Assembly (NCBI RefSeq): GCF_058153355.1 | Contig: NZ_CM177019.1 | Direction: 5' to 3' (one strand) | Length of the DNA stretch: 64,000 bases | Shown here: positions 14,779 to 64,000 of the stretch, piece by piece | Numbering within the stretch: the first letter of the stretch is position 1 | How the letters are laid out: every line of letters begins with the position of its first letter | Notes under the pieces: generated by a model | What the model was told of the DNA's origin: nothing | What the model saw: only the letters and a program-made list of their open reading frames with translations | Databases searched by the model: none | Program-made: the position numbers and the translations under genes

Positions 14779-14786
14779 GACTGATT

Positions 14787-14809
14787 GGGCGCAGTCATTT
14801 ACTGCGCCC
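14787..14809 (+). terminator. Intercistronic hairpin between mglB and mglA (attenuator-type)
   Basis: gggcgcagt cattt actgcgccc followed by ttattg. Confidence 0.5.
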
Positions 14810-14838
14810 TTATTGTATGGCCAACAAGGTAAAATTAT

Positions 14839-16359: not shown

Positions 16360-16374
16360 GATTAGGGGCCTCCC

Positions 16375-17385
16375 ATGAGTGCGTTAAATAAGAAAAGTTT
16401 TCTTACTTACCTGAAAGAGGGCGGTATTTACGTCGTTCTTTTAGTTTTGCTGGCGATTATTATTTTCCAGGACCCAACTTTTTTAAGTCTGTTGAACTTA
16501 AGTAATATTCTCACCCAGTCATCGGTGCGTATTATTATCGCGCTTGGTGTGGCAGGATTAATTGTCACCCAGGGGACCGACCTTTCTGCGGGACGTCAGG
16601 TAGGGCTGGCAGCCGTGGTGGCAGCGACGTTATTGCAGTCCATGGATAACGCTAACAAAGTATTCCCGGAAATGGCGACGATGCCGATTGCGCTGGTAAT
16701 TCTGATTGTCTGTGCCATTGGCGCGGTGATCGGTTTGATCAACGGCCTGATTATCGCTTATCTCAACGTGACGCCATTCATTACCACGCTCGGCACGATG
16801 ATTATCGTCTACGGCATCAACTCGCTCTATTACGACTTTGTCGGGGCGTCGCCAATTTCTGGTTTTGACAGTGGTTTCTCTACCTTTGCTCAGGGCTTTG
16901 TCGCGCTGGGGAGCTTCCGTCTTTCTTACATCACTTTCTACGCGTTGATTGCGGTGGCATTCGTCTGGGTGTTGTGGAACAAAACCCGCTTCGGCAAGAA
17001 CATTTTTGCCATTGGCGGTAACCCGGAAGCGGCGAAAGTTTCTGGTGTCAACGTTGGCCTGAACCTGCTGATGATCTACGCGTTGTCTGGTGTGTTCTAT
17101 GCCTTTGGCGGGATGTTAGAAGCCGGACGTATCGGCTCTGCCACCAACAACCTCGGCTTTATGTATGAGCTGGATGCTATCGCAGCGTGCGTGGTGGGCG
17201 GCGTATCGTTTAGCGGCGGTGTGGGGACGGTAATTGGTGTAGTGACCGGGGTAATTATTTTTACCGTCATCAACTATGGCCTGACGTATATCGGCGTAAA
17301 CCCATACTGGCAGTACATCATCAAAGGGGCGATTATTATCTTCGCCGTGGCGCTGGATTCACTGAAATACGCGCGTAAGAAGTGA
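16375..17385 (+). CDS. mglC: Galactose/methyl-galactoside ABC transporter permease
   Basis: 336-aa polytopic ORF immediately after mglA. Confidence 0.95.
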   Translation: MSALNKKSFLTYLKEGGIYVVLLVLLAIIIFQDPTFLSLLNLSNILTQSSVRIIIALGVAGLIVTQGTDLSAGRQVGLAAVVAATLLQSMDNANKVFPEMATMPIALVILIVCAIGAVIGLINGLIIAYLNVTPFITTLGTMIIVYGINSLYYDFVGASPISGFDSGFSTFAQGFVALGSFRLSYITFYALIAVAFVWVLWNKTRFGKNIFAIGGNPEAAKVSGVNVGLNLLMIYALSGVFYAFGGMLEAGRIGSATNNLGFMYELDAIAACVVGGVSFSGGVGTVIGVVTGVIIFTVINYGLTYIGVNPYWQYIIKGAIIIFAVALDSLKYARKK

Positions 17386-35109: not shown

Positions 35110-35282
35110 CAAGTTCTTTTGTGTTGCATTGCTGGCGTAAATGTCAGCAATGCAGCATTTCCTCACGATTCTCCTTTGACGATCGCACTTTTTGCTCGTT
35201 ATGATGGCGTCGCTAGCCTCAGTAAATCCTTACTCCGGCGGTGCGCAACCTGTGCGCGTGAACCACTATCTGAATGCTCATC

Positions 35283-36215
35283 ATGCCGAAATTTCGAGTT
35301 TCTTTATTTAGCCTGGCCCTGATGCTGGCTGTGCCTTTTGCGCCGCAGGCCGTTGCGAAAACGGCAGCCGCTACCACCGCTTCACAACCGGAAATTGCTT
35401 CCGGTAGCGCGATGATTGTTGATCTGAATACCAACAAAGTGATCTATTCGAACCACCCGGATCTGGTGCGTCCGATTGCGTCTATCAGTAAATTAATGAC
35501 CGCGATGGTCGTGCTGGATGCGCGACTGCCGCTGGATGAAAAACTAAAAGTGGATATCAGCCAGACGCCGGAGATGAAAGGGGTCTATTCGCGCGTACGA
35601 CTGAACAGCGAAATCAGCCGTAAAGATATGCTGTTGCTGGCGCTGATGTCTTCAGAAAACCGCGCGGCGGCAAGCCTTGCGCACCATTATCCCGGTGGCT
35701 ACAAAGCCTTTATTAAGGCGATGAATGCGAAAGCGAAATCGCTCGGAATGAACAACACGCGCTTTGTTGAACCGACCGGATTGTCGGTGCATAACGTTTC
35801 AACTGCCCGTGACTTAACCAAACTGCTTATTGCCAGCAAACAATATCCATTGATCGGGCAGTTAAGTACTACCCGGGAAGATATGGCAACCTTCTCTAAC
35901 CCGACGTATACGCTGCCGTTCCGCAATACTAACCATCTGGTGTATCGCGATAACTGGAATATTCAGTTAACCAAAACCGGTTTTACCAATGCGGCGGGCC
36001 ATTGTCTGGTGATGCGCACGGTTATCAATAATAAACCGGTGGCGCTGGTAGTGATGGATGCGTTTGGCAAATATACCCATTTTGCCGATGCCAGCCGCCT
36101 GCGTACCTGGATTGAAACCGGTAAAGTGATGCCAGTTCCGGCAGCAGCGTTGAGCTATAAAAAACAAAAAGCCGCCCAGATGGCGGCGGCGGGGCAGACG
36201 GCGCAGAACGATTAA
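35283..36215 (+). CDS. pbpG: D-alanyl-D-alanine endopeptidase PBP7
   Basis: 310-aa product with signal peptide and active-site SxxK (SISKLMT) and SxN motifs. Confidence 0.9.
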
Positions 36216-49180: not shown

Positions 49181-51172
49181 TTACTCAAGCAAGGTTAATA
49201 ATTGTTCGCAAAGCAAAACGCAGTTATTCATTGCTTCTCCCCGTGCCTCGCCTTCTGTATTACGAAATTGTCCCAACACATGTGCCAGCCGATAAAAACC
49301 CATCGCGGTGAGTTCATTGACCAGCAACTCTGACTGACTAATGGCACTCTGTTCCTGATAGCGCCAGCCATTATGGAGCAGTTGAATAAGCAACGCCTGA
49401 CAGCGCATCAGTAACTGATGAGTGGTAGACGGTACAGGCAGAACGCTGGCAGAAGGTAGCGGTGCCACAGGCGCAGTTTCTGCGTCCAGCGCCCAGGCGC
49501 GGGTTTTTGTCATCATCACCCGTGGTTCCAGTGTCAATTGCCCCTCTACAAAACTGACAAAGCCAGAAACCAGACTCACGGGGTCGTCTGTTTGTTGTAA
49601 CAGAGCTGCCATGCGTTCAACGGCAAAAGGAGAACAGGCAGATGCCGGAAGGGATAACGTCAGCACATTATCGTCACCTTCGCCACTGATTACCTGCGCA
49701 TCCAGTGTCTGCCGACTGCTGTCCCAACCGAGTGAAATGCACTCTTCTACTGGCAGAATAAATAAGTTATCGACCTGGTTAAGCTGTCGTATGGCGGCTG
49801 GCGGACGTTGGCGTAAATATTCCCGCAAAGCCACAATGCCCGGCTGGCGCAGTGGTGCGCTCAACATTTGCCAGGCATCAGGCGACAGCGGAACAACACT
49901 GCTTAAGCGGTTGCGGGTAGCTAATAGCAACTCGCCATCAGCACTGCGTTTTGCTGCTTGTGAAACAATTTGCCCACCCGCCAGCGCGCCAGCCTGAAAA
50001 CTAAACAGCCGCCGTTTTGCCGCTGGAGAGTTATCCTGTTCACTTCTCGGCCAACTGCGCGAAAGATGCAAAATACTGCCGGTGTCGGGATCGGTGAACC
50101 AGATGCGTAAACCATACCGCTCATTATCCTGCCAGCAACGCATACCTAGTGACACCAGCCGCAAATGATCAAGCTTTGCTTCGCCAGCAATGCCTGCGCC
50201 AATGACCGTGCGCCACGGTATGGGCGGTACTTCACCGACACTGTCACGTCGCGCCATCTCTTGTGCACTGTTCAAGCGACTGGTTAACGCCGCAAGCTGG
50301 CACAAGCATTTTCCGGCATGATAGTAGCTGGCGCGGGCGTGGAAGGCATCAACGCTTGCCCGTAGCTGTCGTAGTGATTCACTTACCCAACGCCAGTTGC
50401 AGCGTTCCGCCGCTTGCTGCGCGCGGCTGAAAGCGGCCTCGTAGTGGATTGACGGTTGGCTGATGCCTCCCAGCCATAATGCCTGACTTAATTGCTGAAC
50501 ATATTGACGACATGCTTTACCTTCGTCGCTGGAAAACGGATCGTCAGATGATGTGACGTGTTCACTGTGCATCTGCCAGATCAAATGAGTAAATTCTGCT
50601 TGTTGATTTTTGGCCTCGACGAAGGCCTGCACAGCCAGTGCTACGTGTTCACACAGCGTTCCTTCAATACAATCACAACGGGCGAAACGAATGCTGCTGC
50701 GGGAATAAAAACGCACATCGCTCATCGGTAAGCGGGCAGAGGGAATTTCGCCCGGCGTGCAGAACAACTCAATGGTGATGCCTTTAGCGACCAGCGCCTG
50801 CGCGCGTTTGCGCGTGGTATTGGGCAGGGTAGCCAGTTCTTCCTGCCAGATTGCCGGATCCCACTCTTCTTCTTTTTCCGTAGGCTGGGCGGTGGCACAA
50901 AGTCGTTGATAACTTAACACCAGCATCACGCGATGACGGCACATGCCGCTGGCCCCGCAGCTGCATTGAGCCTCTTTCAGTGCCTGACTGTTCGCCAGCC
51001 GGGTACGGACACCGTCACTGAACGTGGCGATTAAAGCGCCGTTCTCATGGCAGATTTCCGGGACATTGCCATTTTCCAGTTCCTTAAGGCTGCGCTTCAC
51101 AAAACCAGCATTGCTTAACGCCGTCAGGGCCTGCGGTGTCAGTTCTAATAATTCCGGACGTAGTGAATTCAT
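49181..51172 (-). CDS. yehQ: SWIM zinc-finger protein YehQ
   Basis: Start MNSLRPELLELTPQ overlaps the yehP stop (ATGA); two CxCx5CxH SWIM motifs visible (CSCGASGMCRH and CDCIEGTLCEH). Confidence 0.85.
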   Translation of the reverse strand: MNSLRPELLELTPQALTALSNAGFVKRSLKELENGNVPEICHENGALIATFSDGVRTRLANSQALKEAQCSCGASGMCRHRVMLVLSYQRLCATAQPTEKEEEWDPAIWQEELATLPNTTRKRAQALVAKGITIELFCTPGEIPSARLPMSDVRFYSRSSIRFARCDCIEGTLCEHVALAVQAFVEAKNQQAEFTHLIWQMHSEHVTSSDDPFSSDEGKACRQYVQQLSQALWLGGISQPSIHYEAAFSRAQQAAERCNWRWVSESLRQLRASVDAFHARASYYHAGKCLCQLAALTSRLNSAQEMARRDSVGEVPPIPWRTVIGAGIAGEAKLDHLRLVSLGMRCWQDNERYGLRIWFTDPDTGSILHLSRSWPRSEQDNSPAAKRRLFSFQAGALAGGQIVSQAAKRSADGELLLATRNRLSSVVPLSPDAWQMLSAPLRQPGIVALREYLRQRPPAAIRQLNQVDNLFILPVEECISLGWDSSRQTLDAQVISGEGDDNVLTLSLPASACSPFAVERMAALLQQTDDPVSLVSGFVSFVEGQLTLEPRVMMTKTRAWALDAETAPVAPLPSASVLPVPSTTHQLLMRCQALLIQLLHNGWRYQEQSAISQSELLVNELTAMGFYRLAHVLGQFRNTEGEARGEAMNNCVLLCEQLLTLLE

Positions 51173-52305
51173 GACTGAAGATTCTCCGCAAGCCAGGTAG
51201 CCAGTTCGCCCGGCGTCATTGCGGCTATTTGTGCGCCGACATTTACCAGCGCCTGGGCTGTATCGCGGTCGTAGCAAGGTGTTGCGGTGCTATCGAGCGC
51301 TGCCAGTCCCAGCACTTTGATGCCGCTCTGGACACACTTTTTCACCTGATGCGTCAGCAATGATGATGAACCCCCTTCATAAAAATCGCTCACGAGGATG
51401 ATGACGCTTTTCGCTGGTTGTTCAATAAGTTGCCGACCATATTCCACGGCGCTGGCGATATTGGTCCCGCCATCCAGCTGTACTTTCATTAATAACTCTA
51501 CCGGATCGGCAACGTCTGCCGTGAGATCGACGACGCTTGTGTCAAAAGCGACCAGATGGGTGCGGATACCGGGTAACTGCCATAAACAGGCCGCCATCAC
51601 CGCTGAGTGGATCACCGAATCGACCATTGAGCCGCTTTGATCAACCAGTAACACCAGCTGCCATTGTTCGCTATGGCGTTTAATTCGGCTGTTAAAGCGG
51701 GGGGATTCGATATACAACTTGCCGTGTTGCGGGTGCCAGTGTTGCAGGTTGGCGCGCAGAGTACTTTTGAAATCGAAATTACGTGCCAGTGGAATAAATG
51801 AGCGGCGACGGCGATCGCGGACACCTGAAAAAGCCTGACGAACTTCCTTTGCCAGTCGCGCCATAATTTCTTCAACAACCTGGCGCACTATCCGGCGGGC
51901 GGCAGCCAGCACTTCGGGATTCATCAGATGTTTGGTGTGCAAAACGGCGCGTAGCAGGCTTTCAGAAGGCTGCATACGCTCCAGCACGTCGAGATTCGTC
52001 ACCACATCTTCAATGCCGTAGCGCAGTACGGCATCGCTTTCCAGCCGCTCAATCACCCGTTGCGGAAATAGTGTGTGAATACTGTTGATCCACTCAGGGG
52101 TGGTGAGATTTGAGTCACCTAATCCACCGGAGCGTTCACCACGCTGGAGCCGTTCAGGATCGCGCCCATACAGCCACTCCAGCGCGTGGTCTATCTGCCG
52201 GGCATTGTCATCCAGCCCACAAAGCGTCGTTTCTGCCGCTTCGCCAAGAATTAATCGCCAGCGTTGTAGCTCACGAGTGGTCAGAAGATCGTTCAGTTCA
52301 GACAT
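51169..52305 (-). CDS. yehP: von Willebrand factor A (VWA) domain protein YehP
   Basis: 378-aa product from MSELNDLLTTRELQRW; MIDAS motif DxSxS in LVLLVDQSGSM. Confidence 0.85.
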   Translation of the reverse strand: MSELNDLLTTRELQRWRLILGEAAETTLCGLDDNARQIDHALEWLYGRDPERLQRGERSGGLGDSNLTTPEWINSIHTLFPQRVIERLESDAVLRYGIEDVVTNLDVLERMQPSESLLRAVLHTKHLMNPEVLAAARRIVRQVVEEIMARLAKEVRQAFSGVRDRRRRSFIPLARNFDFKSTLRANLQHWHPQHGKLYIESPRFNSRIKRHSEQWQLVLLVDQSGSMVDSVIHSAVMAACLWQLPGIRTHLVAFDTSVVDLTADVADPVELLMKVQLDGGTNIASAVEYGRQLIEQPAKSVIILVSDFYEGGSSSLLTHQVKKCVQSGIKVLGLAALDSTATPCYDRDTAQALVNVGAQIAAMTPGELATWLAENLQS

Positions 52306-54577
52306 GGAAAACTCCCCAGTGTTGCAGTGATGCCAGTGCCTGCTGTTCGAGTTGTTGATGATGTGCAATGGCTTGCGGTGGACAATGCAACGGCATTTGC
52401 AGCGCTGAAACGGGAAGCTGTGCGAGCTGGTAATGCTCAAGCACCTGATGCGCCAGCGTCCCGCGTTCTCGTGGTGGTAGCCAGGCCATCGCCGCGCGTA
52501 AATCGGGCAGGGCGTTAATAAAATCGTCGTCACTCAGTTGATTTAAATGACTACTGAAACCGGCGATAAATGCCGGCTGACAGGCCAGTTGATGGCGGGC
52601 CAGCGCCAGCAAACCGTGCAGCGCCTCGCCAGATTGTGCCGGGGATAATTGTGCCAGCATCGTCAGCGCCGCTTCGGCACTGGCGTTGGGATGTTCCAGA
52701 CGCATCAGCGCGCCAAGGGCCGCACCGCGATCCAGCGCTGGGGCATGAATCGCCTGACTGCGACGTTCCAGTAAGGCTACCGCCGCAGAAAGCGAAACGC
52801 CGGGTAAATTAACGCCGCTATTTAGATCGCGCAGGATATGGCAAAGCGCCTGCCAGCTATGCAGGTGAGCGTGAAACTCCTTCTCATCCGGCCTGCCGTT
52901 GGATTCACATAGCCACAGTGTGCGATCGATAGCCGCGTATAACGTCGTCTGTAATATCTGCGCGCCTTGCATACCGCTGATTTCATCGAGCTGCCACAAG
53001 GCGTAAAGCACTTCCAGCGCCTGGCCCATTTCGGCAAACTGATTTTCCTTGGCGATTAATAATGTGAGTTGTTCCAGTAATTGCTGACTGAAGGACGCCA
53101 GACCCGCTAACGCGGCCTGGCTAAGACATGTGGTGATGCCGCTGATTCCACCCGCGTCCAGCATATCGGCTTCTAATTTATTGCGTGCGGCCTCCTGGAG
53201 TGTGGCACCAAAGCAGGCGGCTTCAATCAATGCCGCATGTTGGCTAAGTGGCTGGGTTAATGTCCAGCGTTCTTCACCGTTGCCCGCCAGCGTCAGTGTA
53301 CTTCCTTGCTCGCGCACAATGCCGGGAATCTCCAGTATTACCAACTGATGTAGCACCTGACTTTGCGCCAGTCCATCGGGGGTAAAGCGATTTAAGGTAA
53401 GCTCCGCCGGAAGAGAGATTCCGGTACGTTCCAGTTCGTAGGTGACATCTTTTGGCAGAGGTGGCTGTGGCGTCGAGGGGGCAAGTTTACCGAATCCGTC
53501 ACCTGCTAATGTGTCTATCAACGTTACCAGTATCGGATCGGTATCGGGATGAATAACGTCGCGATAGCTCCACGGCAACGGCGCATTCAAGGCTTCTTTA
53601 ATCAGCGAGCCTGCTATGGCATCCAGCCAGTCAGTGCGTAACGGTAGTGTATGACCGCGCAACTGTGCCAGCGCCATCGCATGTAAATGAGCGGCAGCCA
53701 TATCCGCGGTTGAAGCAGGCAATTTGTGCTGGCGCAAACGGGTAAGAACCGTTTTTAGTAGTTGTTCACCTGCCTGCTGCAAGCCCCACCGCCAGCACCA
53801 GTTTTGCCAGACCGGGGCAGGCATTCCTGAAAGGTATCCTGCCAGCACATCAAGGCGCTTTTCACTGTATGGCGTGAGATAGCAACCTGTAACGGCATCA
53901 TCCTGTGAGAGCAATTCTGGCTTGTTAATTTCTTGCGGGCATTCGCGCCACATTTTTGCCAGTGCCGGAGCGTGCCAGCCTCCGCAGACGACTAATACGT
54001 CGCCATTATTTTGCTGCATCGCCCATGCAATCCAGCGGGCCATAAAGGCTTCGCGCTGACGATTGAGTGCATCGCCGGAGGCGTCGCCCCGCAGTTGTGC
54101 AAAATAGTGCGCCAGTGCAGAGGGTAATATAGTTTGCTGGCTTTCATCTTCGAACAAGTGATCCCACAAGGTGTCGCTGTTATCCATGCGGGTGGCACGC
54201 AGCAGAAAGGCCTGGCTTTCCTCTTGCATATCAGGCGAATCATCCTCTTCTTCACTTTGTGCCCAGCAAGGCAAATCGATGAAGTAAGTTTGTGCCTGAA
54301 TACGACGTGCGGCTTGTAGCGCCTGCCACTCCGGCGAAAATTCAGCAAATGGCGTCCAGGCACCACGCCCGGGGGCCGCACCGTCCTGATACTGGCAATA
54401 ACTGTAAATAGCTACCGGAAGCTGGTGGGCTAACAACAGTTCGTCTACCCGGTCATTAAAATCAGCCGGGCCTTCAATCAACACGTATCGTGGCCGCTGG
54501 CTTTCGATTAACGATTTCACCAGCCGGGCGCAGGCCGGACTATGATGCCGGATGCCGACAATTAACGGCTCGCTCAT
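52298..54577 (-). CDS. yehM: Large uncharacterised protein YehM
   Basis: 759-aa product from MSEPLIVGIRHHSPACARLV; no recognisable catalytic motif by eye; sits between the AAA+ and VWA genes. Confidence 0.85.
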   Translation of the reverse strand: MSEPLIVGIRHHSPACARLVKSLIESQRPRYVLIEGPADFNDRVDELLLAHQLPVAIYSYCQYQDGAAPGRGAWTPFAEFSPEWQALQAARRIQAQTYFIDLPCWAQSEEEDDSPDMQEESQAFLLRATRMDNSDTLWDHLFEDESQQTILPSALAHYFAQLRGDASGDALNRQREAFMARWIAWAMQQNNGDVLVVCGGWHAPALAKMWRECPQEINKPELLSQDDAVTGCYLTPYSEKRLDVLAGYLSGMPAPVWQNWCWRWGLQQAGEQLLKTVLTRLRQHKLPASTADMAAAHLHAMALAQLRGHTLPLRTDWLDAIAGSLIKEALNAPLPWSYRDVIHPDTDPILVTLIDTLAGDGFGKLAPSTPQPPLPKDVTYELERTGISLPAELTLNRFTPDGLAQSQVLHQLVILEIPGIVREQGSTLTLAGNGEERWTLTQPLSQHAALIEAACFGATLQEAARNKLEADMLDAGGISGITTCLSQAALAGLASFSQQLLEQLTLLIAKENQFAEMGQALEVLYALWQLDEISGMQGAQILQTTLYAAIDRTLWLCESNGRPDEKEFHAHLHSWQALCHILRDLNSGVNLPGVSLSAAVALLERRSQAIHAPALDRGAALGALMRLEHPNASAEAALTMLAQLSPAQSGEALHGLLALARHQLACQPAFIAGFSSHLNQLSDDDFINALPDLRAAMAWLPPRERGTLAHQVLEHYQLAQLPVSALQMPLHCPPQAIAHHQQLEQQALASLQHWGVFHV

Positions 54578-54587
54578 GCATCTTTCC

Positions 54588-55676
54588 TCACGGCAGGCGG
54601 TGGCGAGCTTGATAATAAGCCTGCCAGTGAGCTTCTTTATGTGTAGCGACACGTTGTTCGAAGTAACGGCGCAGACGTGCGCGATCTTCTTCGTTATCTT
54701 TGACGATGGTTCCGGCAATACAGTCCACCAGGTCGGCTGGCTCCCCCGCGCGATTCGCTAAAAACCAGGCGCGGACGCCCACGGCGTGGGCCACGTTAAC
54801 GGCTTCAGCGGTGGACATAATCGCTGTAAGGGTATCCATTGACGTTTTCTTTTCGCCGTTGGCACGCAGATCGCGGAAGGTGCGTACCAGTAACTCAAGT
54901 ACCGCGTCAGGCACTTTATGCGGAATACCGCTATGGGCCAACAAACGCGCCGAAGCACTGGCGACCAGTTCCAGCTCCTGGGCGAAATCCATAATCGGAA
55001 AAACCGTTTCAAAATCGAATCGGCGTTTTAGTGCCGCGCTCATTTCATTAACGCCGCGATCGCGGGTATTGGCGGTGACAATAATATTAAAGCCTTCCCG
55101 CGCATAGAGCTGACTGGCTTCACCAGTGAGTTCCGGCACCGTCATAACCCTGTCAGAAAGCATACCTAACAGACAGTCTTGTACTTCCAGTGGTGTACGC
55201 GTTATCTCTTCAAAACGGACAATTTTGCCGTCGCGCATTCCCTGGTAGAGCGGGGCAGGGACCAGCGCTTCCGTTGACGGACCATGATTAATAAGCAGGG
55301 CGTAGTTCCAGCCGTACTTGATTTGATCTTCGGTGGTAGATGCGCCGCCCTGGATAGTTAACCCAGCATCGCCGCTAATAGCGGTTGCCAGTAATTCAGA
55401 CAGGAGAGATTTTGCGGTGCCAGGTTCCCCCACCAACATCAAACCGCGCCCGGTAGCAAGAGTGACTAACATGCGTTCGACAGCGGAGGGACTAATCACG
55501 ACTTTACGGCTGATATTTTGCGCGCTATCGCCAAGAATAAAAGAACGGGCCGCAGGCAAACTTAACTGCCAACCGGGCGGGCAAGGTGCGTTATCATTTT
55601 GCTTTAATTTTGCCAGTTCATCGGCGTATAACACAGCGGCAGGCGGACGCTGCAGATGATTATTCTGCGGTGACAT
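54588..55676 (-). CDS. yehL: MoxR-family AAA+ ATPase YehL
   Basis: 362-aa ORF with Walker A GEPGTAKS and the AAA+ core; first gene of the yehLMPQ operon. Confidence 0.9.
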   Translation of the reverse strand: MSPQNNHLQRPPAAVLYADELAKLKQNDNAPCPPGWQLSLPAARSFILGDSAQNISRKVVISPSAVERMLVTLATGRGLMLVGEPGTAKSLLSELLATAISGDAGLTIQGGASTTEDQIKYGWNYALLINHGPSTEALVPAPLYQGMRDGKIVRFEEITRTPLEVQDCLLGMLSDRVMTVPELTGEASQLYAREGFNIIVTANTRDRGVNEMSAALKRRFDFETVFPIMDFAQELELVASASARLLAHSGIPHKVPDAVLELLVRTFRDLRANGEKKTSMDTLTAIMSTAEAVNVAHAVGVRAWFLANRAGEPADLVDCIAGTIVKDNEEDRARLRRYFEQRVATHKEAHWQAYYQARHRLP

Positions 55677-55786
55677 ATATTCATCCCTGAAATGTATTAA
55701 TCAAATAAACGATATTTTACGCGCAATAAATGTTTGGCGCATTAGTTGTTTGAGCGGAAAATATCTGGAAAGCAGATCACAGTAAA

Positions 55787-55868
55787 TAAAAAAACCTGCT
55801 GGTGAGGCAGGTTCTTTTATTTACTACTTTGACGATAACTTGCTGATTGTGCAACATTTCGTACCAAC
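55787..55868 (-). ncRNA. orzO: Candidate antisense sRNA antitoxin (OrzO-like) transcribed divergently from the toxin gene
   Basis: Minus-strand -10 TATAAT (plus coordinates 55875-55880) with a TTGCAA -35 at 55898-55903; predicted transcript starts at the reverse complement of an 18-nt repeat (55851-55868) and ends at a strong terminator (55794-55822). Symbol is from memory of the EHEC locus and is not verified. Confidence 0.4.
55794..55822 (-). terminator. Rho-independent terminator (strong on the minus strand, weaker bidirectional)
   Basis: acctgc-tggtgagg-gcaggt hairpin flanked by aaataaaaaa on one side and tcttttattt on the other. Confidence 0.6.
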
Positions 55869-55897
55869 GAATGAATTATAACCATATCCACATCCCG

Positions 55898-55925
55898 TTG
55901 CAATTCACTAAGCGAGATTTATAAT
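55898..55925 (+). promoter_or_regulatory. Sigma70-type promoter for the small toxin mRNA (long 5' UTR)
   Basis: -35 ttgcaa (55898-55903), 16-bp spacer, -10 tataat (55920-55925); predicted start about 174 nt upstream of the toxin ATG. Confidence 0.4.
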
Positions 55926-56106
55926 CGTGCCCGTTGGGAGGTTGTGCCGGATTGAACCAATTTCAAGTCCTGGCTGCCGGACGGGGGGTGCCGCAGGTGG
56001 TGCCCTGATCCGGAGAGCAACGTTTCGTACCAACATACGTAAACCAGTATCGACAGGCAGTGTAAGGGTAAGGTGCTGGTGTTGCGCTCCTTAATAAGGA
56101 GAGCGG

Positions 56107-56196
56107 ATGGACACGCTGACACAAAAGTCAACCGTGCTCATTGCCGTACTGGAGTTATTAGTGGCTCTGTTGCGGTTGATTGATTTGTTGAAGTAA
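56107..56196 (+). CDS. zorO: Type I toxin-like small hydrophobic peptide (29 aa), ZorO-like
   Basis: ORF MDTLTQKSTVLIAVLELLVALLRLIDLLK preceded by SD aaggagagcgg-ATG; amphipathic single helix resembling TisB/DinQ-class toxins. Symbol assigned from memory, moderate certainty. Confidence 0.55.
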   Translation: MDTLTQKSTVLIAVLELLVALLRLIDLLK

Positions 56197-56218
56197 CGGG
56201 CAAATTGAAACGCATCTA

Positions 56219-56245
56219 AGGGGGAATACCGTTTCCCCCTTTAAT
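56219..56245 (+). terminator. Terminator hairpin after the toxin ORF (also at the 3' end of convergent yehK)
   Basis: agggggaa-taccgt-ttccccct followed by ttaataaagctattttt. Confidence 0.45.
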
Positions 56246-56249
56246 AAAG

Positions 56250-56570
56250 CTATTTTTCTATTTGTTGGATGAATATATTTTGTAGTTCACGATTAAAAAT
56301 TGCTATTACAGTTTTAGGTGATTCACCTCGTAATTTACGCTCATCAATAAATTCATCTCTTATATAAATCAACGCATCATTTATTAGCGGGTCGACATCT
56401 TCTCGATCACGTTGATGAAATGTTGGATGTAGCCGGAATCGCTCCAACCGGTAGACGGAACCAGTAAATAATTCAGAGCATTTATGGATCTCAAGTCTGA
56501 AGGAAAACGGATCTTCAGGTACAGGGACTTCATAATCATAAGTAGCGACCAGCTCTTTTTGCACGATCAT
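56250..56570 (-). CDS. yehK: Small uncharacterised protein YehK
   Basis: 106-aa ORF immediately downstream of yehI on the same strand. Confidence 0.8.
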   Translation of the reverse strand: MIVQKELVATYDYEVPVPEDPFSFRLEIHKCSELFTGSVYRLERFRLHPTFHQRDREDVDPLINDALIYIRDEFIDERKLRGESPKTVIAIFNRELQNIFIQQIEK

Positions 56571-56630: not shown

Positions 56631-59600
56631 TTAATGGAAAATGACGTCAGGTGCGCTTAACGCTTCACTCAAATCAAACGTATCGAGTTCGGCAAAAGTG
56701 ACAGATTTATTGTCACGGTACACTCGAAGAGAACGGAAGCTCATTAGCGCTTTGCTATCAGCACTGTAGTGGTTAAAACCGGGTGAAAACTTAAGGACCA
56801 GCCGATACTCGCCCAGGTCATAGACACATGCGTCCTCAAAACCTGACTCCCAGCCTTTGTATCGCATTCCCATAAGTTGCCCAACGGTTGCGGATTTACC
56901 TTCCCAGCGAGTCAGGCTGTTACTGGCTGACTCGTCAGGTGTGAGCAGCACTGTGCGCCGCATCAACTGGCGAAAAGGCGGCATAATTTCGTAATCGGCA
57001 AAAACCTGTGCAAATTCACTGCGCATTTCTGCTGTCATTTCTAACGGGTGGGCAATGCCAATCAGAGCATCCGCAGGCAGGTCAATTGGCTCATCTTGTG
57101 CGTTGCAGAACTCCCCCTCAGCGGCCACGCGAAAGGCGTTGAGTAAACGACGCGGTTCATTTGCCGGATAAACCGCCCATATTAATCGCTGAGTAACCAG
57201 GCGAGTAAAGGGATGATTAACAAACAGAGAATGAAAATCTGCCAGCGACCAGCGTCGGGTGGTGCGTAGGGCAGTTTCAAGACGCGGGAGCAGGTTTTTG
57301 CTCACCTGAGTGGCATCTTTTTTTAGCCCTTTTAGTCGGGCCAGTGCCTCGGGTGCTTTCAGCTGATCGTCATCGGCGCGCAACCGGGGAACACTTTTCT
57401 GGCGAACGTTTTGCTGATCAAAGATAACCGGGTTGAGGTTTTCATCGAAGCGAACGGTAAACTGCCGGGGTCCAAAATCAAATATCAACGCCTGCGGATC
57501 ATCCAGGCCCAGTGTTGGGACTAATCTGTCCGCTAACTCTTCCTGGCTTAGTCCACGATTTTCTGCGACCACCTGAAGAAATTCCGCCGCGTTATCACGT
57601 AAGGGACGGGATTTCGCCCGTTGCGATATATGATGCAGCTGTATCAGCGCCATATCATTATTCATCAGGGTAAGTATGTTCAGGCCACTGACGGCGCGGG
57701 CAGATTTGCCTTCCTGTGGCCAGGCGAGGATCTGTGTTGTCAGATCCCGAGCCGTGCTTTCGTCACCAAAGAGACTTAACGCCAAAAAAGCCCAGTTGTC
57801 TTTTGCGGGGGCGCCAGCCTGTTGCCAGGCGGTGAAGAGATCCCAGGCAAAAGCGGCCAGCGTTTGTGGCTGGCAGAACGTTTTCAGTTGTTCCAGCCCA
57901 CAATAAAAACGTCCGCCCTGGGTAAAGCGCAGCATTTCGCCGATAATTTCCAGAGCATCATCAGTAACATGTTGATTATTCGTGATAATTCTCGGTCTGG
58001 ACCACATTGTCGGATGCCAGAAATCAGGGGCTTTGGGAATGCGTGCCGGGTAAATGTCCATTGGACCCTGTTTAAGTAATTGCTCCAGGGCAGGCCATAC
58101 ATCTGTATGCTGCCAGCGGTTTGCCACGGTTTGCAGTAATTCGCCATGCCCTTGTTCATACAGTAAACGCAGAGCGCTGAGTGCCGCTTCGCTGTTATCG
58201 CCAGACCTGGCAAAGATTAATGGGATCAGCGCCGTAGCCGTATGCTCCGGCCATTGTAAAATCCACTGGCGAGCCAGATTACGCTGGCCCGCAAAACGAT
58301 GCCAGACGCGGGCAACGGGCAGCGCCAGTTCTGTTGCGCCAAAATGAATCAGCAGCGGAAATATCTCTTTGGGATGTCGGGCAAAGGCGGTGATTAATCC
58401 GGGCAAAGCATCGGTACCCAGGACACTTAACAGATATTCTACCCCGGTGTAATGAAAATCAGCCGCGACAATTTGTTGCCAGCACGATACCGCCATTTCG
58501 CGCGGCATTTGCGCGATAAGATACAGGTTCCATACTCCCCAACGCTTTTCATCAGTGTAATTAAATTTGCGTTGGAAAGTTCGCCACCCCTCCATCAACG
58601 CAACACTATCTTGTGCCAGTAATGCGCTGGCGGCCTCTTCCCGGTAGTGTTTATTTTCATTCTGTTTTGCCTGATAATTGAGCAATCTTCCTACTGAAGT
58701 ATGTGTCTCTAGTTGATCGGTATCCAGAGCATCCAATTGTCCTTTGAGAATAAACTCATTAAACTTCCACCTGTGATCTTCAAAACCTAATTCCCGCAAG
58801 AAGGTATCCGCCCCTCTGTTAGCAAGACGTTCGTCAAAAGACATGGCGCTAAAATGGTCAATTGCAGTTTGCTGTTCCGGCGTCCAGTGTTTATTCGGCG
58901 ACCTGTACGCTTGCGGTACAAGCGTAAGTTCAGGTAGCGAAAAGTGAGTTATGGAAGCCTTTTTCCTGCCACGCCACGGTGGTGAAACGAGGATTTCAGG
59001 CAGACTACTGTTATCGGTGCTATCAATAACCGGTTTTGGCGAAGCCGATAAATAACTATTCACCACTGCCCGGGCTTGAGTACTTAACGACGGGATCACC
59101 TCTTCTGCCAGTTGTGGCTGCGATGCCATCAGCGTTTGTAACAGCGTACGCCAGTATTCATCACGTGCTTTTTGCTGTGCAGGCAGCTTTTTGTCTTCGA
59201 TGATAGGATAACCAGGGCGCGTAGGGGGGGCTTTTAACGCCAGTAGTTCTGCCAGTGCGGCGAGCGTCGCATGGGGAAAGTTTTTACTGTATTTAGCCAC
59301 ACGCTGCAGGCTGGGTTTGTTTTTATCGGCAACTAACAGCAAGATGCGAATAACTTGCGGATGGTTAATTTGTACCAGCAGGCTACCGCAATCTTCTTTA
59401 TGGGCATACATCGCGAGGCGTGGAACGGCTGCAATTCCTTGTTCGCGCAAAAGGGCGGCGCAGGCCGCGTAGCCGAAGTGGTTTTCATGCGACATGTAGC
59501 TGGCTTCGCGATCGCTAAATATATCCTGGCTCCAGTAGCGTTCGAGTTTTCTCACCGCTCTGGGGTCATTAGCAACAACTTTTAACCACTCCTTAGAATG

Positions 59601-60287
59601 AAAATGAGTCCGCGGGCATTCAAGGCCTACCAACTCATTGGCGATTTCTGGTTTCTCCGGGAGGATGAGTGCAATAAAAGGACGGCGAACTTGGGGTAGT
59701 CCTGGCAGTGCGGCAATGAGTTTGTCGGCGCAACGCTGCCAGCAGCTTTCCTCTGCCAGAGAGAGAGGCTTACGCAGTCGGAGATCGAATTCGTTATAGG
59801 TTTCTGAGCGATAACCATAACCATAGCCATAGTCCTCCTTCTGATACTGCAATGTTACTACCAGAGGATCGTTCTCATAACACCGCGCAATAAACTGGCG
59901 TGCAATCACCACCTCAGTCGCATATTCCAGCCCCTCTTGTTGGACGATTTCGTCGAGCAACTGTTGGCTGTCATTTTGCGCGATACAGGCTAGCGCCGCC
60001 ATTGTCCGGGCCGGAATTGAGGGTTTGTGCTCGCCGATCAAGTTGATGGCTTGCGTAATGGCCGACTGCCACTCCAGTGAAAAATTTTCATAACGCCAGA
60101 CAATGTTTTTTTTCTTCTCAGCAATGTGTAGCAATTTATCACCCAGTGTCTGGATGAGGCTTTCAGTGATAACAGGCACCGGTTCGCCCGGCCAATTGCG
60201 ATGGCTGAGTGGTGTTTTGCCTTTTTTATATTTCAGTTCCAGTTGGGCGTTATCCGCCAGCCACGGTAATTCCTTGTCCATGCTCAT
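56631..60287 (-). CDS. yehI: Giant DUF4132-family protein YehI
   Basis: 1218-aa ORF; paralogous to the adjacent molR product (shared blocks such as HLSLAEESCWQRCADKLIAALP...ALILPEKPEIANE). Confidence 0.9.
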   Translation of the reverse strand: MSMDKELPWLADNAQLELKYKKGKTPLSHRNWPGEPVPVITESLIQTLGDKLLHIAEKKKNIVWRYENFSLEWQSAITQAINLIGEHKPSIPARTMAALACIAQNDSQQLLDEIVQQEGLEYATEVVIARQFIARCYENDPLVVTLQYQKEDYGYGYGYRSETYNEFDLRLRKPLSLAEESCWQRCADKLIAALPGLPQVRRPFIALILPEKPEIANELVGLECPRTHFHSKEWLKVVANDPRAVRKLERYWSQDIFSDREASYMSHENHFGYAACAALLREQGIAAVPRLAMYAHKEDCGSLLVQINHPQVIRILLLVADKNKPSLQRVAKYSKNFPHATLAALAELLALKAPPTRPGYPIIEDKKLPAQQKARDEYWRTLLQTLMASQPQLAEEVIPSLSTQARAVVNSYLSASPKPVIDSTDNSSLPEILVSPPWRGRKKASITHFSLPELTLVPQAYRSPNKHWTPEQQTAIDHFSAMSFDERLANRGADTFLRELGFEDHRWKFNEFILKGQLDALDTDQLETHTSVGRLLNYQAKQNENKHYREEAASALLAQDSVALMEGWRTFQRKFNYTDEKRWGVWNLYLIAQMPREMAVSCWQQIVAADFHYTGVEYLLSVLGTDALPGLITAFARHPKEIFPLLIHFGATELALPVARVWHRFAGQRNLARQWILQWPEHTATALIPLIFARSGDNSEAALSALRLLYEQGHGELLQTVANRWQHTDVWPALEQLLKQGPMDIYPARIPKAPDFWHPTMWSRPRIITNNQHVTDDALEIIGEMLRFTQGGRFYCGLEQLKTFCQPQTLAAFAWDLFTAWQQAGAPAKDNWAFLALSLFGDESTARDLTTQILAWPQEGKSARAVSGLNILTLMNNDMALIQLHHISQRAKSRPLRDNAAEFLQVVAENRGLSQEELADRLVPTLGLDDPQALIFDFGPRQFTVRFDENLNPVIFDQQNVRQKSVPRLRADDDQLKAPEALARLKGLKKDATQVSKNLLPRLETALRTTRRWSLADFHSLFVNHPFTRLVTQRLIWAVYPANEPRRLLNAFRVAAEGEFCNAQDEPIDLPADALIGIAHPLEMTAEMRSEFAQVFADYEIMPPFRQLMRRTVLLTPDESASNSLTRWEGKSATVGQLMGMRYKGWESGFEDACVYDLGEYRLVLKFSPGFNHYSADSKALMSFRSLRVYRDNKSVTFAELDTFDLSEALSAPDVIFH

Positions 60288-60290
60288 TCC

Positions 60291-63200
60291 TTATTCAAAC
60301 AGGGCTTCGATGTCGTTAATTAACTCGCTAGCGGTGATGTCATCGAGTGCGGAGAACTGCGCTTCCTGTGTTGAATTAATCCCCCAGCCATAGCTTTCTG
60401 CTTTGCCTTCCCATAGCCACAGCTTGCTTAAGAGTTGCTCGGCACTGAGTTCGGCTGGCGACATACCAACTGCAAATCCTTCATCGATTTCCATGATTAA
60501 TGACCAGCGGCCCAGAGGTTTGATCATCCAGCCGATCCAGCCACCGTCCTGCGGTTCACCACGCATCCAGCCTTTATTCGCCAGCCCCATTACCCGACCG
60601 CTCGGGCATTTTCTGCCTGCCCAGCGGGTCAATTCGCTGGCATTGCGCTCGGTTTCTGTCAGGGCGTAACTGTTACGGTCGAGCTGGCGGAACGGCGGTA
60701 GCAGTTCGTAGTCGGCAAAAAGCTGACCAAAGGCGGCAGCATCCGTGGGTGATATTTCCAGAACGTGAGGAATGCCAACAGAGATATCGCCTTCCGGCAG
60801 GGTGAAAAGATCATCGTCAGCGGTGCTGTAGCTGTTATCTTCCGCCACACGGAAGCACGCCAGTAACTGGTTGTCTGCGCTATAAATGCCCCAAATCAGA
60901 CGGCGGGTTAAGTGGCAGACCAGCGGATGCTCAACCAGAAAGAGCTGAAAGTTTTCTGGCGACCAGCGGCGGCGCAGGCACATGGCGGATTCCAGCCTTG
61001 CCACCTGCTGGGCGGCAACGGTACGCGCATCTTTTTTCAGCAGTTTGTAGCGGTTAACTGCATCGTTCGCTTGAGTTTCATCATCGCTTTTGTTCGGTTT
61101 AGGCAAGTCTTTCAGGCGGCTGCCGGAAGCATCACGCACAAACGGTTTTAAGGTTTCATCAAAGCTGACGGTGAACTGCCGTGGCCCGAAATCCAGCAGC
61201 AGCGAACCGTTATCATCCAGACCGAGATCCGGTGCTAACCGGTCTTCAAGCTCCGCCACCGTGAGTTCGCGGCTCTCGGCAATGTCGGCAATTTTTTCTT
61301 TTGCCCGCTCCTGTAATGCTTTGAATTTCAGTTTCTGGGCGATGCCGTTAAGCTGCATCAGGGCGATATCACTACCGATAGCAGCGAGAATATCCAGCCC
61401 GACGGTGGCGCGTTTATGCTGGGATTCACCAGGCCAGGCGCGAATCAAAGGCGTCAGTTTGCGGGCGGTATCATCGTTGCCGAGAACACCTAACGCAGTG
61501 AACGCCCAGCTTTCTTTCGACGGTGCGCCAGCGGTCTGCCAGGCGGTAAACAGATCCCAGGCAAATTCAGCCAGTGAGTCGGCGGTACAGGCATCTTTCA
61601 CCTGCAATAACCCCGCATACAGAGCCTCTTCCTGAGGGAAGCGGAGCATTTCACCGAGGTGGAGGAGGGCGTTATCTGGCAGTGATTGGGCGTTTGCTTT
61701 TAATACCGGGCGTGTCCAGAGCGATGGCTGATAAAAGGCCGGAAGTGTCGGGATTTTAGTCGGGTGATTATCTAAGGGATCGAGCGCAAGTAGAGCGTTC
61801 ACCGCATCGGTTACTTCCGGCTGGTTATAACGCTGGGCGATTTCTTGCAGTAATGACGGATAACCACTTTCAATCAACATACGTAAGGCGGCGCGGGCGT
61901 TATCCTGGGCTTCACCAGCTTTGCCGAGTGCCGCAGGCAACAGGCCGATAATGGCATGTTCCGGATATTTCAGCAGCCAGGTGCGGGCGTCTTGTCGTAG
62001 AGTTTTGAGTTTGTTAAAGGCGCGGGCGACGGCAGGAGCCAGTTCCGTTGCGGCAAAATAATTAGCAACCGCAAAACCTTCTTGAGGGTAGCGTGAAAAC
62101 GAGTGTAGAAAACCACTCATACCTGCCAGTCGCAAATAAAGCATGACAGGTTTTACCGCGGTATGCGGCTCTTTGCTGAGAAACTCCCATAGTTTAATCG
62201 CTGTTTGCATAGGTAAAAAGGGAAGTGAGTTGAGATGCCACTCCCCCTGATACGGTGCATGGTGGGCTTTAAACATTTGGATGAGTGTAGCGAAGTCCTC
62301 ACGTTCCCATGCGTCAATTGCCGAGTCAGAAGCGCCGATATATTTATATGTGTCAAAATCCCAGCGGCGATACCCCAGCGAGTAAAGGAAATCTTTAGCA
62401 CCTTCACCTGGCTTATGCGATTCCCAGTCCCAATGAGTTTGAAACTCTTTTGCTTCTGTGTCGGTTATTGTGCATATGGATTTGAGTTTGAGCGGTGCTA
62501 AATCCAACACCGGAATCGTCGATTTTTTCTTTTTCGAAAGCCAGGGAGGTAAGACTAATACGGCTGGCAGTAGAGCGGCGCAGGCATGGTTTGACGGTTG
62601 TATCAGTTGTTGCTGGCATGATTTCAGCACTTCAACTGCGGCTGTCGAGAGCCAGGGAGTGACCTGTTCTGCCAGTGCCGGTTGCGAGATAAGCATCGTC
62701 ATTAGCATAATGCGCCAAGTATTCTCTTCTTTTTGCGCAAGAAGTTCCGCCAGTGCCGCCAGTGCTGCGTGTGGGAACGCAGCGCAAGCTTTCGTCATCC
62801 GATCGTGACAGCGTTTAGTTTGCCCGGCTACACGTATGAGCAGTGTTAATGCGAACGGATGATTGATATGACGCAATACATCTGCGCAGTAGTCACTTGC
62901 GGCATAGGGAGCAAATCTGGGCAGGGCTGCAACACCTTGCTCCTGTAATACGGTGGCTGACAATATCGCACCACAATAGTAATCATCAAAAATGGCATAT
63001 GGCTCGTGATATTTTTCTAATGAGGCAAGAATGTGCTCATCAGTCGCCACTATTTTTAGCCACTCAAGCGAGGGTAATTTTTTTTTCCCCAGTAGACGCT
63101 GGGCAATTTCATGTGCAATTTCTGGTTTTTCGGGTAATAACAAAGCAATTAATGGTTGCCGCCATTCTGGAATATGTGGAATTGCGGCAATAAGTTTTTG

Positions 63201-64000
63201 TGCACATTTTTGCCAGAGAGACTCTTCCGCCAGTGATAAATGTTTCCGTAGGCGTAATTCAAAACTGGAATATTGCTGCAGGTTATCAGGTGCAATACCA
63301 GACGGCAGAATAATAATGGTATTATTCGCATAATCCCATTCAATATCAATCTGTTGAAGATGTATTACTACATCAGTAGCATATTCCAGGCCACCTTCCT
63401 GAACGAGCTGATCCATAACATCCTCACGCTCTTTATATCTCGTGCACTTCAGTTCAAGTGCCGTGAGTACAGCCATTACTGGTGATGGTAACTGTGTTGT
63501 TTTCAGGCAGTCGATCTGACTGAGCGCCTGGGAGATGGCGTTTTGCCATTCTAAAGAACAGGCGCTGAAGTCAAATGTGGCTGTTTTATTATCCCGTTGC
63601 AACACGCTACAGGCTAAGCGGCGTAACTGGGTCAATTCGTCTGCTTGCTGAACAGGAACTCCGGGAAAGCGGCGATGGCTTAACGTGGTGTGTACAACTT
63701 CGGGCGGAAAAACGACAGCAATATCTTTCGCCAGCCACGGTAAAACATCATCTGTATTTTTGTCAGCCACACGGGCTTCTGCTACGCAAAAGGGTTGTTC
63801 CTGAATAATGGTGGATAAGGCCGCTACCTTGAGAGAATCCGTTACCGTTTGGGAAGGTTGCAAAGAATTATCCTTCGCTTGCCCCACATACCCCTTCTTC
63901 ACCTTCTCCGCAATCAGCCTCAGTTCCGCTTTTTCCGCCGCCGCAGCATCAGCAAAGCTTTTTACCTGGCTTTGCCCGTTGGTACTGACTTTGCCCCAAC
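60291..64000 (-). CDS. molR: Giant DUF4132-family protein MolR (YehH/YehG/YehF equivalent), intact frame, 5' end beyond window
   Basis: Uninterrupted reading frame from 60291 to the window edge, with no in-frame stop in 63903-64000; paralogue of yehI. Confidence 0.8.
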   Translation of the reverse strand, partial: WGKVSTNGQSQVKSFADAAAAEKAELRLIAEKVKKGYVGQAKDNSLQPSQTVTDSLKVAALSTIIQEQPFCVAEARVADKNTDDVLPWLAKDIAVVFPPEVVHTTLSHRRFPGVPVQQADELTQLRRLACSVLQRDNKTATFDFSACSLEWQNAISQALSQIDCLKTTQLPSPVMAVLTALELKCTRYKEREDVMDQLVQEGGLEYATDVVIHLQQIDIEWDYANNTIIILPSGIAPDNLQQYSSFELRLRKHLSLAEESLWQKCAQKLIAAIPHIPEWRQPLIALLLPEKPEIAHEIAQRLLGKKKLPSLEWLKIVATDEHILASLEKYHEPYAIFDDYYCGAILSATVLQEQGVAALPRFAPYAASDYCADVLRHINHPFALTLLIRVAGQTKRCHDRMTKACAAFPHAALAALAELLAQKEENTWRIMLMTMLISQPALAEQVTPWLSTAAVEVLKSCQQQLIQPSNHACAALLPAVLVLPPWLSKKKKSTIPVLDLAPLKLKSICTITDTEAKEFQTHWDWESHKPGEGAKDFLYSLGYRRWDFDTYKYIGASDSAIDAWEREDFATLIQMFKAHHAPYQGEWHLNSLPFLPMQTAIKLWEFLSKEPHTAVKPVMLYLRLAGMSGFLHSFSRYPQEGFAVANYFAATELAPAVARAFNKLKTLRQDARTWLLKYPEHAIIGLLPAALGKAGEAQDNARAALRMLIESGYPSLLQEIAQRYNQPEVTDAVNALLALDPLDNHPTKIPTLPAFYQPSLWTRPVLKANAQSLPDNALLHLGEMLRFPQEEALYAGLLQVKDACTADSLAEFAWDLFTAWQTAGAPSKESWAFTALGVLGNDDTARKLTPLIRAWPGESQHKRATVGLDILAAIGSDIALMQLNGIAQKLKFKALQERAKEKIADIAESRELTVAELEDRLAPDLGLDDNGSLLLDFGPRQFTVSFDETLKPFVRDASGSRLKDLPKPNKSDDETQANDAVNRYKLLKKDARTVAAQQVARLESAMCLRRRWSPENFQLFLVEHPLVCHLTRRLIWGIYSADNQLLACFRVAEDNSYSTADDDLFTLPEGDISVGIPHVLEISPTDAAAFGQLFADYELLPPFRQLDRNSYALTETERNASELTRWAGRKCPSGRVMGLANKGWMRGEPQDGGWIGWMIKPLGRWSLIMEIDEGFAVGMSPAELSAEQLLSKLWLWEGKAESYGWGINSTQEAQFSALDDITASELINDIEALFE

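Follow-up and report, generated by a model that had tools for sequence, protein, structure and literature searches.

What occupies the gap between yehL and yehK in this Escherichia coli chromosome, and is it complete? The DNA analysed, here called the window, is a stretch of 64,000 nucleotides from contig NZ_CM177019.1 of RefSeq assembly GCF_058153355.1. The original prediction placed a type I toxin-antitoxin module in a 573-bp gap between yehK and yehL, and the gap measured here has the same size, running from 55677 to 56249. The flanking genes were named by alignment to the annotated yehL, yehK and yehI genes of four E. coli RefSeq records:

54588 to 55676, minus strand: yehL, named through the aligned RefSeq records.
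56250 to 56570, minus strand: yehK, named in the same way.
56631 to 60287, minus strand: yehI, named in the same way.

The site between yehL and yehK is the chromosomal position of the zor-orz family. All RefSeq/PGAP records inspected were free of annotation within the gap. An NCBIfam scan assigned the 29-residue peptide encoded there to no family, which reflects a missing model and is not evidence against the open reading frame; exact-sequence look-up of the ZorO and ZorP peptides led to the UniProt names ZORO_ECO57 and ZORP_ECO57. A PADLOC scan of YehI, YehK, YehL, YehM, YehP, YehQ and a YehI paralogue gave no hits that would place the module in a known defence island.

Two Rfam families only were found above threshold in the whole 64-kb window, and one of them was OrzO-P (RF02083), the family that covers both OrzO and OrzP sRNAs. 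It matched the minus strand from 55861 to 55788 over the full model, positions 1–76, scoring 90.6 bits (gathering score 60, E = 6.8e-15). The divergent Orz sRNA of the family is therefore present, with the following parts:

55788 to 55868, minus strand: orzO, predicted gene for the OrzO antitoxin sRNA of about 81 nt (Rfam RF02083; 5′ end from the −10 box and identity with O157:H7).
55786 to 55813, minus strand: predicted OrzO intrinsic terminator, with the stem at 55813–55793 followed by UUUUUUU at 55792–55786.
55851 to 55868, minus strand: OrzO nucleotides 1–18, the region that pairs with the toxin mRNA (exact 18-mer match).

A divergent transcription unit of approximately 80 nt had been proposed, and the length of about 81 nt predicted from the Rfam match and the −10 box agrees with it. 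The stem of the terminator is 12 bp in the minimum free energy (MFE) fold. The consensus terminator scan reported this symmetric hairpin on the plus strand only, and the run of seven T was read directly on the minus strand. The strong terminator originally placed at 55794–55822 thus stands as a hairpin, but its extent was slightly too long, since the stem occupies 55793–55813. Sub-threshold Rfam matches to ohsC, STnc370, Thr/Trp leaders and rliD all fell on the terminator hairpin and were rejected as generic terminator resemblance. A plus-strand OrzO-P match of 25 bits, on the same hairpin and well under threshold, was treated in the same way.

Scanning the gap for promoters yielded exactly two sites, arranged back to back around a common element:

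55898 to 55903, both strands: −35 TTGCAA, palindromic and common to the two divergent promoters (promoter scan).
55920 to 55925, plus strand: zorO −10 TATAAT, with a 16-nt spacer from the −35 (promoter scan).
55880 to 55875, minus strand: orzO −10 TATAAT, with a 17-nt spacer from the −35 (promoter scan).

TTGCAA is the published −35 of zor and orz alike, and the TATAAT −10 is conserved (PMC11264685 Table 3). Judged from the −10 boxes, orzO RNA would start at about 55868 and zorO mRNA at about 55933, 174 nt 5′ of the ATG; a TATAAT promoter some 174 nt upstream of the reading frame was also what the first reading of this DNA had described. The toxin gene itself lies on the plus strand:

56107 to 56196, plus strand: zorO, 29 codons plus stop, encoding MDTLTQKSTVLIAVLELLVALLRLIDLLK (ORF list and comparison with ZorO).

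The peptide is as first quoted, and the good Shine-Dalgarno sequence attributed to it is AAGGAG at 56096–56101 (+164 to +169), 5 nt before the ATG. The −35 TTGCAA, both TATAAT boxes, the ribosome binding site (RBS) AAGGAG and the 29-codon reading frame are each more than 99% conserved across 2,439 zor/orz loci (PMC11264685), and the window carries exactly these elements at the expected spacing. Compared with the published ZorO sequence, MDTLTQKLTVLIAVLELLVALLRLIDLLK (PMC6669753), the window peptide is identical at 28 of 29 residues; the sole difference is at residue 8, where Leu is replaced by Ser through a TTA to TCA change at 56128–56130. The ALLRL motif (residues 20–24), which is required for ZorO toxicity (PMC6669753), is intact. 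A nucleotide search against EHEC zorO/orzO, proposed in the original prediction, gave 95.6% identity with zorO-orzO of O157:H7 across 496 nt. The zor-orz identity offered there was correct, as shown by the 28/29 peptide identity and the above-threshold OrzO-P match.

To assign the copy to a type, the locus was compared with those of an O157:H7 strain, K-12 MG1655, ST2747 and R32_14_1F, and ten full units were compared, drawn from the window, three strains of E. coli and three further Escherichia species. The window zor mRNA agrees with O157 zorO at all but 7 of 264 positions, whereas 19 separate it from zorP. The seven differences lie at +21, +23, +32, +54 and +66 in the untranslated region (UTR), at +197 (L8S) and at +240 (synonymous). 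The five UTR differences are thus all within +21 to +66, and the UTR from +67 to +174 is identical to that of O157 zorO. On the antitoxin side, OrzO nucleotides 1–33 are identical to O157:H7 OrzO, with three differences in 81 nt, at nucleotides 34, 40 and 41. The U at position 34 adds one pair to a stem involving nucleotides 7–10 of the pairing region; its effect is predicted to be small, and the identical OrzO sequence is present in strain R32_14_1F. Because the UTR from +67 to +174 and OrzO nucleotides 1–33 are identical to those of O157:H7 zorO-orzO, the window unit is assigned to the O type. The V1 specificity block (OrzO nucleotides 6–11) reads UACGAA and has a matching target, and the toxin carries neither T3S, found in ZorP, nor A20S, found in ZorQ (PMC11264685). 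A P-type or Q-type copy was rejected on the 7 against 19 differences and on the O-type V1 block.

With EHEC O157:H7 EDL933 zorO-orzO (Fozo et al. 2010; PMC3919570; PMC5397157) the window copy shares the site, the architecture, the promoter hexamers, the 174-nt UTR, the 18-nt pairing, V1 UACGAA, the RBS hairpin and the 3′ hairpin. It differs in copy number. EHEC O157:H7 has two tandem units, zorP-orzP adjoining yehL and zorO-orzO adjoining yehK, whereas the window has one pair. At the junction yehK lies 53 nt after the zorO stop, as in ST2747, which also has one unit, compared with about 110 nt in O157:H7. R32_14_1F is the closest relative in the complete-genome set (98.3% identity over 3.6 kb here, with an identical OrzO) but has two units, a second one of a different type being inserted after the first. 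Both zorP-orzP and the third, zorQ-orzQ-like type share family, promoters, RBS and reading-frame length with the window copy. They are distinguished from it by the V1 block, AACACG in P-type Orz and GGCGCC in the second copy of R32_14_1F.

Taken together, the gap very probably contains an intact, single zor-orz type I toxin-antitoxin copy of the O type at its usual yehL-yehK site, with a mechanism assigned by orthology. The system is already known, and its configuration here is ordinary.

[quoted passage not shown] The leader of the window mRNA and the sites within it are:

55933 to 56106, plus strand: predicted zorO 5′ UTR of 174 nt (distance from the −10; agrees with the published 174-nt UTR, PMC5397157).
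56005 to 56034, plus strand: EAP region, +73 to +102, a putative ribosome standby site (coordinates transferred from PMC5397157).
56017 to 56034, plus strand: predicted OrzO target in zorO mRNA, +85 to +102, GCAACGUUUCGUACCAAC (18-mer search and duplex prediction).
56087 to 56101, plus strand: predicted RBS hairpin CUCCUU-AAU-AAGGAG (MFE fold).

OrzO nucleotides 1–18 are predicted to form 18 consecutive pairs with +85 to +102, including one G-U pair as in the reference copy; the G-U arises from a single A-to-G difference between the target site and the 18-mer of the orz gene. The pairing expected of the family is 15 continuous or 17 discontinuous pairs (PMC11264685), so the 18 consecutive pairs predicted within the EAP region exceed it. 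The target site is identical to the EHEC site. When the Orz 18-mer was searched for in the 64 kb with up to 3 mismatches, it was found in two places only, the orz gene and the zor UTR target, against a chance expectation of 0.04. The predicted duplex of the window OrzO with its target has a free energy of −31.3 kcal/mol, compared with −19 to −23 kcal/mol for other Orz types on the same target; non-cognate duplexes are thus 8–13 kcal/mol weaker than the cognate one.

The ten full units contain three Orz V1 types, and the zor target of each is changed to match. For the O, P and third types, duplexes are predicted at −31 to −33 kcal/mol when cognate and at −19 to −27 kcal/mol when non-cognate. 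The V1 block and the zor target therefore co-vary, since cognate duplexes are stronger than non-cognate ones, and the sequences indicate that the antitoxin-target interaction is maintained through this co-variation.

The published work on EHEC zorO describes control by the UTR and a standby site, and identifies delta-28, from which the first 28 nt have been removed, as the active form (PMC5397157). The published RBS, at +164 to +169, is sequestered in a stem (PMC5397157). [quoted passage not shown] The 5′ end (GUUGGGA...) paired with +85 to +102 in the full-length RNA, and this pairing was lost in delta-28. The predicted folds therefore agree with the published probing model, in which both forms have a paired RBS but only the full-length one a paired EAP region. 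The EAP region sequence is the same as in O157:H7 zorO and contains GGAGAG at 56012–56017 (+80 to +85), which corresponds to the GGAG(T/A)G conserved in the EAP region of zor loci (PMC11264685).

Beyond the reading frame lies a further hairpin:

56218 to 56242, plus strand: zorO 3′ hairpin, presumed terminator, AAGGGGGAA-N6-UUCCCCCUU and then U (fold and conservation).

This hairpin is G+C-rich, with 9 bp between 56218 and 56241, and is followed by only T-AAT-AAA, a T-run too short and weak for the consensus terminator scan to detect. The hairpin is kept in all ten zor units, from four species, with almost all variation confined to the loop. The proposal that zorO has its own terminator thus holds as far as a conserved 3′ hairpin is concerned, but the T-run is short and the scan missed it. 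If transcription ends there, zorO mRNA would be about 311 nt long, or about 283 nt after delta-28 processing, alongside an sRNA of about 81 nt. Reported EHEC zorO transcripts are of about 310 and 280 nt (PMC3919570), with a UTR of 174 nt (PMC5397157), and the sizes predicted for the two RNAs fit the published bands.

These elements suggest how the copy would work. Two back-to-back sigma-70 promoters sharing one palindromic −35 would produce a zorO mRNA of about 311 nt in one direction and the 81-nt OrzO in the other. Full-length zorO mRNA would be poorly translated, with its Shine-Dalgarno sequence in a hairpin and its 5′ end folded onto the EAP region at +73 to +102. Loss of the first 28 nt would open the EAP region as a ribosome standby site and allow toxin synthesis. 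The toxin, a helical peptide of 29 residues in the inner membrane, would depolarise the membrane and lower ATP, as reported for ZorO (PMC9860968; PMC6669753). Pairing of the first 18 nt of OrzO with +85 to +102 within the EAP region would block ribosome loading and lead to RNase III-dependent decay of the mRNA. We infer this mechanism by orthology from the published EDL933 experiments, together with expression and toxicity in this strain; in EHEC, toxicity of ZorO, rescue by OrzO, dependence on RNase III and independence of Hfq have been reported (PMC3919570). Multicopy zor-orz gives better growth in aminoglycosides, and expression of the locus responds to carbon source.

Among the divergently encoded type I pairs of E. 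coli, zor-orz resembles tisB-istR1, shoB-ohsC and dinQ-agrB. In all of them a small hydrophobic toxin of the inner membrane is matched with a divergent sRNA whose complementarity is limited to about 18–21 nt and which pairs far 5′ of the RBS in a long structured 5′ UTR that requires 5′ processing and uses a standby-site mechanism. Their peptides differ in having no sequence homology to ZorO. The sole Rfam similarity to any of them is the sub-threshold ohsC match, 28.5 bits against a threshold of 50, on the terminator hairpin. Expression of tisB is under SOS (LexA) control, whereas no such control is known for zorO, and the full-length mRNA of zorO can still be translated, if weakly, whereas tisB +1 cannot (PMC5397157).

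The Leu8Ser substitution is the one coding change that separates the window toxin from published ZorO. A search of 5,426 complete E. coli genomes, with 4,175 zor places among them, gave no exact match to this allele; the best matches differ from it by exactly one base over 71 nt. The L8S peptide is likewise absent from a collection of 15 billion proteins, in which at least 1,000 contigs carry ZorO, 457 carry ZorP and 326 carry the A20S variant, and it was not found in one supplementary file of the mSystems paper. The substitution may be a private mutation, perhaps recent and slightly deleterious, or an error in sequencing. Through it the membrane segment loses a hydrophobic residue at its N-terminal edge, and the mean hydropathy of residues 8–28 drops from 2.43 to 2.21. 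Truncation of the N terminus by 8 or 13 residues leaves ZorO toxicity undiminished (PMC6669753), and because toxicity survives these truncations we expect Leu8Ser to be tolerated. That it is instead a functional rather than a neutral variant, with changed membrane insertion, orientation or potency, is unlikely.

Comparison of the ten reading frames from four species revealed nine distinct synonymous codon variants and three non-synonymous changes. The latter, T3S, Q6R and L8S, are all within residues 3–8. This synonymous-only variation in the core, together with the truncation and ALLRL data, therefore indicates that the peptide core is under purifying selection.

The gap could in principle have been read in other ways. 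Counts of promoter-like and terminator-like sites, taken alone, are not above shuffle expectation, which would fit a reading frame, hairpins and promoter-like hexamers that are chance features of an intergenic region. The Rfam match at E = 6.8e-15, an 18-nt complementarity expected 0.04 times per window, the 28/29 identity to an experimentally validated toxin and the conservation of the whole unit in four species, with only synonymous variation in the peptide core, make this explanation practically negligible, and a chance reading frame in particular is refuted by the Rfam match, the pairing statistic and the cross-species conservation. The RNA architecture could instead be intact around an attenuated or inactive toxin, in which Leu8Ser weakens membrane insertion and the copy, decaying or neutralised, is moving towards an orz-only state. 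Strains that have lost zor but kept orz are common, the substitution lowers hydropathy at the N-terminal end of the helix, and L8S is unmatched both among the zor places and in the protein collection that holds ZorO, ZorP and the A20S variant. This reading is at odds with the toxicity that remains after deletion of the first 8 or 13 residues and with the intact ALLRL (PMC6669753); the other natural substitutions, T3S and Q6R, also fall in the tolerant N-terminal part, and no further lesion was seen in the reading frame, the RBS, the UTR or the promoter. We consider it quite unlikely.

A different question is whether toxin control is the main, or the only, job of orz. The sRNA might act on other targets, or transcription from its promoter might read through into the co-oriented yehLMPQ operon, and a second role of this kind would explain the survival of orz without zor in about 30% of E. 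coli. In orz-only loci the promoters and the transcript are both kept with full conservation, and MG1655 expresses OrzP (PMC11264685). In the window orzO is transcribed toward yehL, 111 nt downstream, and from the Orz terminator to the start codon of yehL no sigma-70-like promoter match was found; the promoter scan is, however, a crude consensus match, so that this absence means little, and the terminator is strong, with its 12-bp stem and seven U. No other Orz target is known, and the co-variation of V1 with the zor target implies selection for toxin control wherever zor is present. We judge a second role to be very unlikely, and the preferred interpretation is still that of an intact O-type zor-orz copy.

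How widespread is such a copy? Some part of the gap is matched by 5,231 of 5,426 complete E. coli genomes, and 3,393 of the 5,426 match at least 80% of it, corresponding to a full unit. The original prediction presented the locus as an EHEC feature; with this many matches it is not specific to EHEC. In a published survey of 2,212 genomes, 3% gave no match, 25% had one copy, 42% had two and about 30% had orz alone (PMC11264685). The further statement that the locus is lacking in K-12 holds for the toxin gene but not for the antitoxin: K-12 MG1655 is without zor and keeps an intact orzP, both promoters and about 30 nt of the zor UTR, which is the published 'orz-only' state (PMC11264685). As for the host of the window copy, the yehQPML stretch (50000–55676) is 90–95% identical to 5,329 genomes and 97.4–98.0% identical to only nine, and in mglBAC the identity to these same few strains is 99.4%. 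On these identities the host belongs to a minority lineage of E. coli.

According to the primary papers, the family occurs only in E. coli and Shigella. Species were scanned with one exact conserved zor 28-mer against one GTDB representative genome per species. Intact units were found at the same yehL-yehK site in Escherichia sp. E1V33, in E. whittamii (two units) and in Escherichia sp. MOD1-EC7003, in regions 85–96% identical to the window, while the E. coli representative had no exact match to the 28-mer. The original prediction would have been undermined by a sequence unrelated to zor/orz or a reading frame lacking conservation; instead, the unit is conserved across four species. Since intact units are present in E. 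whittamii and two other Escherichia species, the zor-orz family is older than E. coli.

For this genome the zor-orz label is useful for annotation, because the gap is unannotated in RefSeq and the peptide has no NCBIfam model. The private Leu8Ser allele is a natural variant that laboratories working on membrane insertion of ZorO may use, and the intact units in other Escherichia modestly extend the published host range of the family.

A 2014 paper (PMC3919570) describes the zor-orz locus as restricted to E. coli and Shigella. Scanning one genome per species, we found intact zor/orz units at the yehL-yehK site in three representatives of non-coli Escherichia species:

Locus L005, Escherichia sp. 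E1V33: zor/orz between yehL and yehK
Locus L006, E. whittamii Sa2BVA5: two zor/orz units between yehL and yehK
Locus L007, Escherichia sp. MOD1-EC7003: zor/orz between yehL and yehK

The promoters, the cognate 18-nt pairing and the 29-codon ORF with its 3′ hairpin were all present in the units of these three loci. One of the two E. whittamii zor copies carries the substitution Q6R, and the MOD1-EC7003 unit joins the ZorO peptide with P-type pairing.

The right-hand zor junction is of two kinds, as seen by comparing window positions 56197-56260 with positions 3631-3740 of the O157:H7 locus (L002). The shorter kind, with yehK starting 53 nt past the zor stop codon, is found in the window, ST2747 and one of the E. 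whittamii units. The longer kind, in which an extra stretch beginning GCTATACTCGTCATACTTCAAGT comes after the zor 3′ hairpin, is found in O157:H7, R32_14_1F, E1V33 and MOD1-EC7003; in O157:H7 this stretch is approximately 50 nt long and places yehK approximately 110 nt past the zor stop codon.

At codon 8 of the window zorO (56128-56130), Ser (TCA) replaces Leu (TTA). The Ser allele had no exact match in 5,426 complete E. coli genomes, nor did the corresponding peptide in a collection of 15 billion proteins. The TCA codon may reflect either an error in sequencing or an allele private to this genome.

Identity to the yehQPML region of the window (50000-55676) is only 90–95% for 5,329 complete E. 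coli genomes; it reaches 97.4–98.0% in just nine, among them R32_14_1F, EC42405, 2013C-4282 and WL297. Identity to this R32_14_1F set is 99.4% across mglBAC (13780-17385). By this pattern of identities, the source of the window is a minority E. coli lineage, and its yeh cluster is unusually divergent.

Directly after yehI in window coordinates lies a further large gene:

60291-63902, minus strand: intact ORF of 1,203 codons

The encoded protein and YehI share 37% identity across approximately 1,190 residues, which makes them tandem paralogues. Neither protein had a match in NCBIfam or PADLOC.

Elsewhere in the window, an RNA motif lies immediately 5′ of a peptidase gene and overlaps its start:

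35198-35278, plus strand: Peptidase-S11 RNA motif (Rfam RF03039; 73.1 bits, threshold 34.8)
35274..36215: D-alanyl-D-alanine endopeptidase gene (NCBIfam NF008668; 599.6 bits)

The orzO gene is directed towards yehL and ends 111 nt ahead of the yehL start codon. A simple scan of this interval (55677-55787) found no sigma-70-like promoter. Transcription from the orz promoter could conceivably run on into yehLMPQ; if it does, this might bear on the persistence of loci that, as in K-12, have kept orz without zor.
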